Shown here piece after piece: positions 21,285-22,193 of a DNA stretch of 64,000 nt. The stretch lies in assembly GCA_014730275.1 (NCBI GenBank), contig WJIL01000068.1, forward strand, positions 19,324-83,323. Direction: 5' to 3'. Position numbers and translations under genes: made by a program. A model generated the notes under the pieces. It was not told the DNA's origin. It did no database searches and saw only the letters and a list, made by a program, of their open reading frames with translations. Numbering within the stretch: position 1 is the first letter of the stretch; each line of letters begins with the position of its first letter. This stretch comes from Promethearchaeota archaeon. Lineage in GTDB: Archaea; Asgardarchaeota; Thorarchaeia; Thorarchaeales; Thorarchaeaceae.

Positions 21285-21314
21285 TCGGTATCACGTCATA
21301 TATCTCTGGAGGTC

Positions 21315-21959
21315 TTGTATATGCAATCCACGGGCAACATTTATGCAGTACGAACTACAATTGGACAGGAAAAGAGCGTTGGAGATTTAATTAGAACAGC
21401 CGTGACCAGTGCAAATGATATCTGGGTATGTCCATTTTGTGAAAAGGAGTTTGACTTCAAGGATGATGCTCAGGAGCATATAAAGGAATGCCAGATGGCC
21501 GAAGGGGAAGATTCTCCTGAACGTGTATCGGAAAACAAGCTATTAGGACGGGTTAAAGCAGTTCTTGTGCCCGGTACTCTGAGAGGGTATATATTCCTTG
21601 AAACCATGGAATTTAGAGATGTGGAATTGGCAATCCAAGGAATTCCCCATGTACGAGGGCGTGTTGGGGGAAAGGTGACACTTGAAGAAATTGACAAGTT
21701 TCTTGTACCTCCACCCGCCGCTGAGGGTATTTCAGTTGGCGATCTCGTTGAGATTATTTCTGGAGCATTCAAGGGTGAACGGGCTAAGGTAGTCAGAGTC
21801 GAATCAGCAAAAGGAGAATTGATCTTAGAACTGCTTGACAGTCCTCATACGATTCCAATAAGAGTACATGCAGATTTTGCCAAGCTTGTTGAAAAAGCTG
21901 AACCAGAAGAGGATGAAGAAGAGGAAGGAGAGGAAGAAAGCGGGTTCTGGGCGAAGTAG
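21315..21959 (+). CDS. spt5: transcription elongation factor Spt5 (NusG family) with NGN-domain insertion and acidic C-terminal tail
   Basis: IYAVRTTIGQEKSV (NGN start). KOW motif GDLVEIISGAFKGERAKVVRV. A ~40-aa insert contains CPFC-x12-H-x3-C. Confidence 0.9.
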   Translation: MYMQSTGNIYAVRTTIGQEKSVGDLIRTAVTSANDIWVCPFCEKEFDFKDDAQEHIKECQMAEGEDSPERVSENKLLGRVKAVLVPGTLRGYIFLETMEFRDVELAIQGIPHVRGRVGGKVTLEEIDKFLVPPPAAEGISVGDLVEIISGAFKGERAKVVRVESAKGELILELLDSPHTIPIRVHADFAKLVEKAEPEEDEEEEGEEESGFWAK

Positions 21960-22193
21960 ATTGAAGCAAGTATACAACAACTAGTCCACAACGCTTAAAA
22001 ACTGAATTCAAGGCAACCTCCTTGTAACTCCTTAATCTGACATGAACGCATAGACGTCATGTCTGGGGTGATGAAAAGTGACAACCGATGCAGTAGACTT
22101 TGCCAAATGTGAATCTAATTTTCAATGGCAGGTCGAGCGATTTCTCAGACAGCTATGTCTGATGTTACAACTGCATAAGGAGTCTTGTTTGAA

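Follow-up and report, generated by a model that had tools for sequence, protein, structure and literature searches.

A predicted classical-type zinc finger in the NGN domain of Spt5 and a matching Spt4 loop in one family of Asgard archaea

The spt5 gene studied here is situated in a 64,000-nucleotide stretch of DNA from a Promethearchaeota archaeon—referred to below as the window—within the gene block ftsZ-secE-spt5-rpl11-rpl1-rpl10-rpl12. The open reading frame at 21315-21959 of the forward strand, noticed in a preliminary description made from the letters alone, was confirmed and its translation is the same. The identity of the product as Spt5, also proposed there, is borne out by TIGR00405 (E-value 2.3e-38; 131.5 bits, cut-off 69.95), by the gene context and by both Pfam domains, i.e. 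NGN (PF03439; 60 bits, cut-off 22.4), whose match is broken into two stretches by an insert—the second one covering residues 72-130 in the 214-residue numbering—and KOW (PF00467; 30.5 bits, cut-off 22.3; E-value 3e-07). The real start is probably ATG 21321 rather than TTG 21315, which would make the protein 212 and not 214 residues long, because GGAGGT precedes this ATG and the N-termini of the homologues, M-x-x-x-x-S-I-Y-A, align there. A profile search of the genome itself returned a single PF03439 match, by which a second, specialised Spt5 paralogue is ruled out; judging from the single copy and the secE-spt5-rpl11 context, this Spt5 must be the housekeeping factor. The features are collected in Table 1, and residues are given below in the 212-residue numbering unless stated otherwise.

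Table 1 Features of the spt5 locus with their positions in the window
Feature	Position	Strand	Basis or remark
Shine-Dalgarno-like GGAGGT, 7 nt upstream of ATG 21321	21308..21313	+	Direct sequence reading
spt5 coding sequence, 212 aa plus stop	21321..21959	+	Pfam/TIGR matches; 100% identical 212-aa database protein
NGN part 1, strand β1 and helix α1 (residues 5-30)	21333..21410	+	Alignment with P. furiosus Spt5 2-28; AF2
Insertion (residues 31-77)	21411..21551	+	Without counterpart in solved archaeal Spt5
Predicted finger core, W35-C57	21423-21491	+	Segment 1 of the insertion
Variable charged linker (residues 58-65)	21492-21515	+	Segment 2 of the insertion
Conserved third strand and return segment, P66-R77	21516-21551	+	Segment 3 of the insertion
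NGN part 2, β2-β3-α2-β4-α3 (residues 78-130)	21552..21710	+	Pfam NGN; PDB alignment
KOW domain (residues about 137-192)	21729..21896	+	Pfam KOW; AF2 strands 142 to 191; P. furiosus KOW alignment
Disordered acidic tail (residues 193-212), ending S-G-F-W-A-K	21897..21956	+	AF2; homologue alignment
F209-W210	21945-21950	+	Homologue alignment

Spt5/NusG is, to our knowledge, the only transcription elongation factor common to all cellular life, and its archaeal form is usually viewed as a minimal NGN-KOW protein. The canonical archaeal Spt4/5 structures taken for comparison were those from P. furiosus (3P8B, 3QQC and 8OKI), M. jannaschii (3LPE and 4ZN1) and T. kodakarensis (9BCT). The present protein shares with them the NGN domain and the single KOW (31-34% identity in structural alignments), the glutamate holding Spt4, the H-x-R loop, the gene neighbourhood and a four-Cys Spt4, whereas it differs by about 45 extra residues of the putative zinc finger and by an extra 8-residue loop in its Spt4; moreover, the solved archaeal Spt5 proteins have 147-152 residues and no acidic tail such as the 20-residue one ending in F-W here. 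The full AF2 model matches 3P8B_B with a Foldseek E-value of 5.7e-16, the order of its elements around the insert being β-α-β-β-α-β-α; in the first part of the NGN, strand 6-12 and helix 17-30 are predicted with pLDDT of about 90. E94, located in the second part, is the sole invariant column in the alignment of 116 Spt5 sequences and, by the offset from the PDB alignment, corresponds to Glu46 of M. jannaschii Spt5, which holds Spt4 through an acid-helix-dipole contact (PMC2896526). The H-x-R loop is conserved as well, H110 and R112 being the equivalents of residues that contact upstream DNA in P. furiosus, where R64, H65 and R67 fulfil this role (bioRxiv 10.1101/2024.01.05.574147).

With regard to the insertion itself, residues 4-30 align with residues 2-28 of the solved P. 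furiosus Spt5 and residue 78 aligns with its residue 33, so that about 43-47 extra residues—some 40 had been estimated previously—lie between helix α1 and strand β2. They contain the motif W35-x-C37-x2-C40-x3-F44-x8-H53-x3-C57. It agrees with the classical C2H2 consensus C-x2-4-C-x12-H-x3-5-H, in which an aromatic residue stands two positions ahead of the first Cys and Phe four positions behind the second, except that Cys replaces His as the last ligand, which makes it a C2HC variant. The spacing C-x2-C-x12-H-x3-C, read correctly at the outset, is the same in all 120 best homologues, and D33, C37, P38, C40, F44, H53 and C57 are invariant in 121 of 121. Of the two doubts raised beforehand, variation of the four ligands is thus not seen, and an assembly or frameshift artefact is ruled out by the open frame and by the spacing kept both in these homologues and in the 44 family genomes described below. 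The label of zinc knuckle given at that time had to be abandoned: a knuckle has the spacing C-x2-C-x4-H-x4-C, while both the actual spacing and the predicted fold match a classical β-β-α finger. In the AF2 model, the finger consists of strands 33-36 and 43-44 and helix 47-56, with the pLDDT of the insert being 83-90 in the full model and 79.5 when modelled alone. In Foldseek superpositions, the insert fits MYST C2HC fingers with an rmsd of 0.6-0.7 Å (26 residues) and the Tramtrack finger 2DRP with one of 0.8 Å (24 residues); it should be noted that for a motif of 25 residues the E-values of the fold matches are non-significant and the Z-scores low.

Among the top Pfam matches under threshold are zf-MYST and zf-C2H2, the scores for PF00096 (12.3 bits against 25.2), PF13894 (12.2 against 27) and the MYST-type finger PF17772 (15.2 against 28.8) all remaining under the curated cut-offs. 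Single short zinc fingers often do so, and for this reason the insert is filed as a classical-type finger rather than as a member of any Pfam family. Membership in the MYST group does not apply, since only the ligand pattern and the local fold are in common and the finger is housed in Spt5 instead of an acetyltransferase. The insert is best described as a predicted classical β-β-α zinc finger with Cys2-His-Cys ligands, through which zinc would be bound. It resembles the classical TFIIIA/C2H2 fingers and their MYST/MOZ/NEMO-UBZ variants in the spacing (W/Y)-x-C-x2-C-x3-F-x8-H-x3-C and in the predicted fold; unlike the classical ones, however, it is single, embedded in the NGN, closed by a third strand and ended by a Cys ligand, it has T or A and not L at the second core position, and it lacks an acetyltransferase or multi-finger context.

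As for possible relatives, the strict classical-finger pattern matches nothing other than Spt5 in the whole 3.6-Mb genome, i.e. no intragenomic donor of the finger was found there. The top VIA-align match of the isolated insert is AFV1p06 (2LVH; Z 4.2, 41 residues, rmsd 2.6 Å, 15% identity), a C2H2 finger of an archaeal virus, which shows that classical fingers exist in the archaeal world; that one is, however, a free-standing viral protein, and relatedness is not indicated at such identity and low Z. A whole folded module inside an NGN loop is also known from NusG of Aquifex aeolicus (1M1G) and Thermotoga maritima (2XHC), both of which the full Spt5 model matches in fold. Their insert is, in contrast, far larger and non-zinc, and bacteria are without Spt4, hence no change of a second subunit accompanies it; furthermore, it occupies a different NGN loop.

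The preliminary description had suggested asking which clade shares the insert. A full-length match carrying it is present in 44 of the 44 sampled genomes, covering 16 genera, of the GTDB family to which the genome belongs (family f1). It was not found in the sister family f2 or in the other Asgard families with a match, where the matches begin only at residue about 68-78; the search for Spt5 in other Asgard families gave a match in 23 of 25 and none in two. The members of family f1 bear mostly the name Thorarchaeota at NCBI. Together with the Spt4 loop described below, the finger provides a clean molecular marker for the Thorarchaeal clade.

Within the family, conservation is distributed unevenly over the insertion. 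Behind the finger, P66, L68, S70, N72, L74, G76 and R77 are invariant or nearly so in the homologue alignments, while the helix surface positions 47-49, 51-52 and 55-56 vary among the 121 sequences. One could regard the insert and the Spt4 loop as near-neutral embellishments that became fixed a single time, in the ancestor of the family, and have persisted without any added function, only because the NGN would misfold if they were lost. The invariance of nothing but ligands and core within the finger fits this, its poorly conserved exposed surface suits a neutral embellishment as well as an interface, and other archaeal Spt5 proteins have a C4 ribbon at a different NGN site; the retention in all 16 genera with fixed spacing, however, as well as the conserved P66-R77 segment and the E/D-D-P-R/K part of the Spt4 motif, suggest selection beyond the zinc site, and we consider near-neutrality improbable. 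Much the same low probability is given to the finger docking a further protein, e.g. a ubiquitin-like protein or a lineage-specific transcription or chromatin factor. Asgard archaea do have ubiquitin-like systems, C-x2-C-x12-H-x3-C is also the ligand pattern of protein-binding CCHC β-β-α fingers (UBZ/NEMO-type), and the structural matches include—amid many other fingers—the UBZ fingers of NDP52 and Rad18 and the CCHC finger of MOZ at Z of 2.2-3.2, in addition to the close MYST superpositions. All these matches are, nevertheless, no better than those to ordinary C2H2 fingers, the helix surface used by UBZ fingers varies within the family, and no docking partner was found in this analysis.

The linker connecting the finger with the third strand has a net charge of +2 to +7 in 92 of the 102 scored family members, typically K-K-K-K-K-K, and is acidic in this genome and its genus (Q-M-A-E-G-E-D-S). 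The finger and the basic linker could form mainly a nucleic-acid-binding addition that raises processivity by contacting the upstream DNA duplex, the non-template strand or the nascent RNA, comparably to the KOW1-linker of eukaryotic Spt5 and the basic NGN residues of P. furiosus. The classical finger fold frequently binds DNA and RNA, models as well as the P. furiosus elongation complex place NGN and Spt4 alongside upstream DNA, and the charge of the Spt4 loop increases with that of the linker. On the other hand, apart from the acidic linker of this genus, the base-reading positions—here F46, D48, D49 and E52—are unconserved in the family and the invariant finger residues are all ligands or core, from which it follows that the finger itself cannot be conserved for contacting DNA. 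This explanation as a whole is held to be rather unlikely, and sequence-specific DNA reading is likewise unlikely in view of the variable helix surface. In the reading preferred here, the finger helix, with its exposed positions varying and acidic in this genome, would be no base reader, and the poly-lysine linker may in most genera add a non-specific contact to the DNA backbone, lost in this genus.

Concerning the partner subunit, a check for an spt4 gene had been recommended, and the gene is indeed present in the genome (G000:C118:26073-26273), adjoining rpoE' and coding for a protein with all four Cys kept. Spt4 was further found in 41 of the 43 other genomes of the family, the two without a match being 71-74% complete; replacement of Spt4 by the finger is thereby ruled out. 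The Spt4 of family f1 carries an extra 8-residue loop with the motif P-x-K/R-D/N-x-x-E/D-D-P-R/K in 17 of 17 sequences, and the motif is missing from all six Spt4 sequences from outside the family. Across 201 genomes, the span of the Spt4 match is, among the matches listed, 198-201 nt in the family versus 174-186 nt at 136 places outside it. The loop follows the strand G-I-V-I-I-L and precedes the Ser capping helix α4, at the known interface, the elements of which are the sheets meeting edge to edge, the Ser39-Glu46 contact and Spt4 α4 packed against NGN α1 and α3 (PMC2896526); the NGN strand pairing with Spt4 was assigned from the same work and from the fold topology.

The 8-residue insertion, seen in the Spt4 of this family only and placed at this interface, lends indirect support to the earlier proposal that the Spt5 insert alters or adds an interaction surface. 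The Spt5 finger would touch the Spt4 loop, as suggested by the topology and by the co-occurrence in one clade, which amounts to a single evolutionary event. Net charge rises jointly in the Spt4 loop and in the Spt5 linker (rho 0.84, n=12, with kinship ignored), a joint shift that fits one shared surface. A position of the insert on the clamp-binding face is unsupported. Clamp and protrusion are without a correlated change: the Rpo2 protrusion/lobe has an unchanged length with a span of 1152 nt in both f1 and another Asgard family (f12), and the Rpo1 clamp domain, at 927-936 nt, exhibits no family pattern in length. Elf1 was found in 43 of 43 genomes of the family, by which its replacement by the finger is ruled out.

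Taken as a whole, we regard as moderately probable a single functional Spt5 of the Thorarchaeota type, in which a zinc-stabilised NGN subdomain enlarges the Spt4/5 surface and a separate motif resides in the tail. The NGN α1-β2 loop would have gained a self-contained zinc-stabilised subdomain on the Spt4 side of the domain, with the third strand closing the finger and bringing both subdomain ends together. Along with the co-evolved Spt4 loop, this subdomain would give the heterodimer a larger, lineage-specific outer surface and may also strengthen its interface. In the elongation complex, the new surface would presumably face the protrusion and the upstream-DNA side, remote from the clamp coiled-coil, with the canonical roles retained: clamp binding, Spt4 binding via the conserved Glu, and contact with upstream DNA by the corresponding loop.

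No description of the Spt5 insert, the Spt4 loop or the tail motif was found in the searchable literature, and the correlated Spt4 loop is new here. An analogy is the S1 insertion domain (SID) of metazoan Spt6, a predicted C2HC finger which is lineage-restricted and whose electronegative surface argues against nucleic-acid binding (PMC13289920). The same article looked for Spt5 in 218 Asgard proteomes, and its passages dealing with Asgard archaea and zinc are silent on the insert. As in the SID, a C2HC finger is placed within a domain of an elongation factor, and both finger and linker are acidic in this genus; the host there is, however, a different protein (the S1 domain of Spt6) from another domain of life, which makes this an analogy and not homology. 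A whole family in the phylum closest to eukaryotes has rebuilt its Spt4/5 heterodimer by three linked changes—the putative NGN zinc finger, the matching Spt4 loop and the tail with a fixed aromatic motif—and the paired insertions represent a natural experiment on the tolerance of the Spt4-Spt5 interface to insertions and on its co-evolution with them.

The tail of the protein had been described as polyacidic; the acidic character stands, yet the tail is not solely polyacidic, ending in a conserved aromatic F-W, which is present near the C-terminus in 119 of 120 homologues and replaced by Y-W in one. In a further homologue alignment, F209 and W210 do not vary. AF2 models the tail as disordered, with pLDDT below 50 at residues 195-208. 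In 20 open reading frames of the genome that have an acidic tail with an aromatic end—including TBP, Hsp70 and stalk proteins—the S-F-W-A motif occurs in none. The tail would be a feature separate from the finger, acting perhaps as a tethered short linear motif for a basic or hydrophobic groove of a partner. Offsetting of the linker charge by the tail charge was set aside, the trend being too weak to use (rho -0.21, p 0.04, kinship ignored).

It should be pointed out that acidic tails with hydrophobic ends are present in most Asgard Spt5 proteins, which raises the question of whether recruitment to the elongation complex by way of motifs, so characteristic of eukaryotic Spt5, is older than eukaryotes. 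A broader and more speculative possibility, to which we attach only modest likelihood, is that Asgard Spt5 proteins are recruitment hubs of the eukaryotic style by means of their aromatic-ended acidic tails, with the finger and Spt4 loop of Thorarchaeaceae as an additional docking platform. If so, they would correspond, in prokaryotes, to what eukaryotic Spt5 has in its acidic N-terminal region and its C-terminal repeats; the tail would carry a partner to the polymerase during elongation, the candidates being histones, a single-strand-binding protein, the termination factor FttA and the ribosome or translation GTPases. The direct bearing of the finger on eukaryote origins is small because it is limited to one family, which is not the closest relative of eukaryotes. 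The aromatic motifs themselves are D-S-F-W-A-H in the tails of family f1, and F-S-F-D-D plus D-E-W-A-K-F-(D)-G-F in two long-tailed families (f9 and f24).

The open reading frame at 21315-21959 is present with exactly the translation given in the preliminary description, and its product matches the NCBIfam model of Spt5 (TIGR00405) with 131.5 bits at a cut-off of 69.95. Pfam recognizes an NGN domain of the Spt5 type, split in two stretches, as well as a KOW motif; the gene, the only Spt5 copy in the genome, lies in the usual ftsZ-secE-spt5-rpl11-rpl1-rpl10-rpl12 block. Since a GGAGGT sequence precedes the ATG at 21321 by 7 nt and all homologues start at the equivalent methionine, the protein is most likely 212 residues long, i.e. 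two codons shorter than the version with a TTG start reported previously; residues are numbered throughout according to the 212-residue form. A non-coding spacer of ~225 nt (21960-22184) separates spt5 from rpl11, the neighbouring genes being tightly packed.

Features of the Spt4/5 system (G000, genome of the window; C, contig; L, locus; P, protein; f9 and f24, other Asgard families)
Feature	Position	Strand	Remarks
GGAGGT	21308-21313	+	
Spt5 coding sequence, 212-aa form	21321-21956	+	ATG start
Segment with finger motif	Spt5 residues 33-57		D33-I-W35-V-C37-P38-F-C40-E-K-E-F44-...-H53-I-K-E-C57
Charged linker	Spt5 residues 58-65		after C57
Closing segment of insert	Spt5 residues 66-77		P66-E-R-V-S70-E-N72-K-L74-L-G76-R77
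Tail	Spt5 residues 193-212		acidic, end S-G-F-W-A-K; disordered in AlphaFold2 model
spt4	G000:C118:26073-26273 (locus L001:1492-1704), outside the window		directly after rpoE'
Long-tailed Spt5	loci L045, L046 (f9), L051 (f24); P0164, P0177, P0190, P0254, P0260, P0264		250-310 aa

In the alignment with solved archaeal Spt5, residues 4-30 and 78-198 correspond to P. furiosus 2-28 and 33-153, respectively, leaving ~43-47 residues (31-77) without a counterpart, which take the place of the four-residue loop joining the NGN helix α1 to the strand β2. The extra residues after the first NGN helix and their C-x2-C-x12-H-x3-C motif, both described from the sequence previously, are thus confirmed by this alignment and by the homologues. 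The label "zinc knuckle" given to them was, however, wrong: a knuckle needs C-x2-C-x4-H-x4-C, whereas the insert has (W/Y)-x-C-x2-C-x3-F-x8-H-x3-C, i.e. the pattern of a classical ββα finger with cysteine as the fourth ligand. No second copy of the strict classical-finger pattern was found in the genome (3.64 Mb, 99.5% complete).

The AlphaFold2 model of the full-length Spt5, built on a 116-sequence alignment, has a mean pLDDT of 81 (83-90 in the insert) and places a strand at 34-36, a helix at 47-56 and a strand at 67-70, followed by the NGN strand 78-82. It agrees with a separate model of the insert, derived from 29 sequences of genome loci (pLDDT 79.5; strands 33-36, 43-44 and 67-71, helix 47-56); in these models, the first and last strands would be the obvious means of joining the two ends of the inserted module. 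With Foldseek, the finger core superimposes on that of Tramtrack (rmsd 0.8 Å, 24 residues, 46% identity) and on the MYST acetyltransferase C2HC finger (rmsd 0.6-0.7 Å, 26 residues), while an independent structural aligner ranked first a C2H2 finger of an archaeal virus (Z 4.2, 41 residues), followed by the Kaiso, ZFAT, MOZ-CCHC and UBZ fingers. The E-values and Z-scores of these matches are weak, as expected with a 25-residue motif, and the Pfam finger models remain below threshold (zf-MYST, E 0.018; zf-C2H2, E 0.26).

Concerning the conservation, the best 120 of 333 database homologues (identity 60-97%, length about 212-260 residues), named mostly "Thorarchaeota" at NCBI, all contain the motif with unchanged spacing. 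Among 121 sequences, D33, C37, P38, C40, F44, H53 and C57 do not change, position 35 is W or Y, and T50 and M54 are almost fixed. Free variation is seen at 47-49, 51-52 and 55-56, the exposed positions of the helix. Of 201 sampled genomes of the phylum, all 44 Thorarchaeaceae (16 genera) gave a full-length Spt5 match; in the single sister-family genome the match begins only at residue about 68-78, as it does in the 23 of 25 other families giving a match (two gave none). A cysteine pair at the insert site was found, among 1.8 billion cluster representatives searched, only in the two clusters of Thorarchaeaceae. The possibility that the insert is an artefact or that its ligands are not conserved, considered in the preliminary description, is therefore ruled out by the invariant ligands, the fixed spacing and the presence across the family; the insert is a shared derived character at the family level.

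An spt4 gene, the presence of which had been left to be checked, was found in the genome and is normal. Its product has eight extra residues (L-P-P-K-D-P-N-E-D-P-R-D-T-S-Y) compared to the sister family and five other Asgard families, in none of which this loop was found, located between the strand G-I-V-I-I-L and the serine opening the next helix; the core P-x-K/R-D/N-x-x-E/D-D-P-R/K occurs in 17/17 extracted sequences of the Thorarchaeaceae. In the 201-genome search, the Spt4 profile match covers 198-201 nt in all 14 listed genomes of the family, while the 136 places listed outside it all have a match of 174-186 nt. Across the sequences checked, the Spt4 loop and the Spt5 finger co-occur perfectly. 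This correlated loop is a result added to the preliminary description.

In M. jannaschii Spt4/5, two sheets are joined edge to edge, Spt5 Glu46 is held by Ser39 of Spt4, with which helix α4 begins, and this helix packs on the NGN helices α1 and α3 (PMC2896526). Glu46 corresponds to E94 in the window Spt5, the sole invariant column in 116 Spt5 sequences. The insert leaves at the C-terminal end of α1 and re-enters at β2, which the β-α-β-β-α-β topology of the fold suggests to be the edge strand beside α1; therefore, the Spt5 insert and the Spt4 loop both flank interface elements and are probably adjacent to each other. The RNA polymerase regions touching NGN exhibit no length change specific to the family (protrusion/lobe span 1152 nt in Thorarchaeaceae and in another Asgard family, f12; clamp domain 927-936 nt). 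A substitution of the finger for Spt4 or Elf1 is ruled out, since Spt4 is present and Elf1 occurs in 43/43 Thorarchaeaceae genomes.

The linker after Cys57 reads K-K-K-K-K-K-x-G-E in most genera, and of the 102 family members scored, 92 have a linker with a net charge of +2 to +7. The window genus has an acidic linker (Q-M-A-E-G-E-D-S), with F46, D48, D49 and E52 at the helix positions by which classical fingers read bases. The net charges of the Spt4 loop and the Spt5 linker correlate (Spearman 0.84, 12 genomes, related genomes being non-independent points), and a change in the same direction fits better with two parts of one exposed surface than with a salt bridge between them. In P. furiosus Spt5, the upstream DNA is contacted by R64, H65 and R67 (bioRxiv 10.1101/2024.01.05.574147); the equivalents H110 and R112 of the window Spt5 are invariant in the homologues. 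The composite surface is expected to face the protrusion and the upstream-DNA side, away from the clamp, and in the poly-lysine genera, given this placement, it may brush the DNA backbone.

The acidic tail claimed previously is present as well; F209 and W210 are invariant in the Spt5 alignment (F-W kept in 119 of the best 120 of 333 homologues), and the S-F-W-A ending occurs in no other protein of the genome. Solved euryarchaeal Spt5 proteins (147-152 residues), in contrast, are without such a tail. Twenty Spt5 genes covering 18 further Asgard families were compared, and 13 of these families show an acidic run with a hydrophobic or aromatic terminus (e.g. E-E-E-F-H-L, E-E-E-G-F-A, E-Y-L-L and D-D-V-F-T-E-L-F-K-S). 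We infer that the F-W tail may be a tethered short linear motif for a putative partner. The charged tails in f9 and f24, ~100 residues long with two conserved motifs (F/I-S-F-D/E-D/Q-E and the terminal D-E-W-A-K-F-(D)-G-F), look like motif-bearing recruitment tails on a prokaryotic Spt5. The TATA-binding protein (205-residue frame on contig C111) ends E-E-D-E-E-E-E-E-I-V-L-E-F and RpoE' (Rpo7; L001:874-1488) ends G-E-G-E-E-N-E-E-E-E-E; several transcription proteins here are thus acidic-tailed, some with hydrophobic ends.

In sum, the Spt4/5 of this genome is canonical except for a zinc-finger/loop elaboration specific to the family and a tail that bears a motif. Of the preliminary description, the observations stand—frame, insert, motif and tail—and the interpretation only in part, the knuckle having become a finger and the function being inferred. 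A study of 2026 described a C2HC finger inserted in the S1 domain of Spt6 in metazoans and also surveyed Spt5 in 218 Asgard proteomes; its passages on Asgard and zinc do not mention the Spt5 insert (PMC13289920). Spt5 is named, without the insert, in reviews of transcription in archaea and Asgards as well as in a paper dealing with ribosomal gene clusters of Asgard archaea. The searchable literature, subscription journals excluded, yielded no account of the finger, of the loop in Spt4 or of the motif in the tail. As an innovation on a universal factor, the elaboration is clear and testable and seems not to have been described before, although it is limited to one family and its function is putative.

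The NusG proteins of Aquifex and Thermotoga, both present among the fold matches of the full-length model, are known to have a domain inserted into NGN. Two other archaeal Spt5 clusters (P0244, P0266) carry a C-x2-C-x10-C-x2-C zinc ribbon elsewhere in NGN, between β4 and α3; zinc modules thus entered Spt5 more than once. The α1-β2 loop itself seems to be a preferred site of insertion, with unrelated long non-zinc inserts in P0125 (about 70 residues, mostly helical, the remainder of the protein resembling the Asgard family f27) and P0207 (about 90 residues). With regard to Elf1, the f9 frames (e.g. G159:C139:1108-1359 and genomes G117, G153, G019, G162, G030) are about 195-210 residues long vs. 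about 85 in Thorarchaeaceae; in several genomes of one f9 genus the match holds one in-frame stop (TAA, TGA or TAG; frame reported 204 residues), which may point to recoding, a split gene or an error in sequencing. In the window genus (G000:C148:21930-22133, G093, G027), the Elf1 match starts from model position 12, compared to position 1 in the rest of the family; the genus, which is also the one that lost the Spt5 poly-lysine linker, seems to have a shorter or diverged Elf1 N-terminus.
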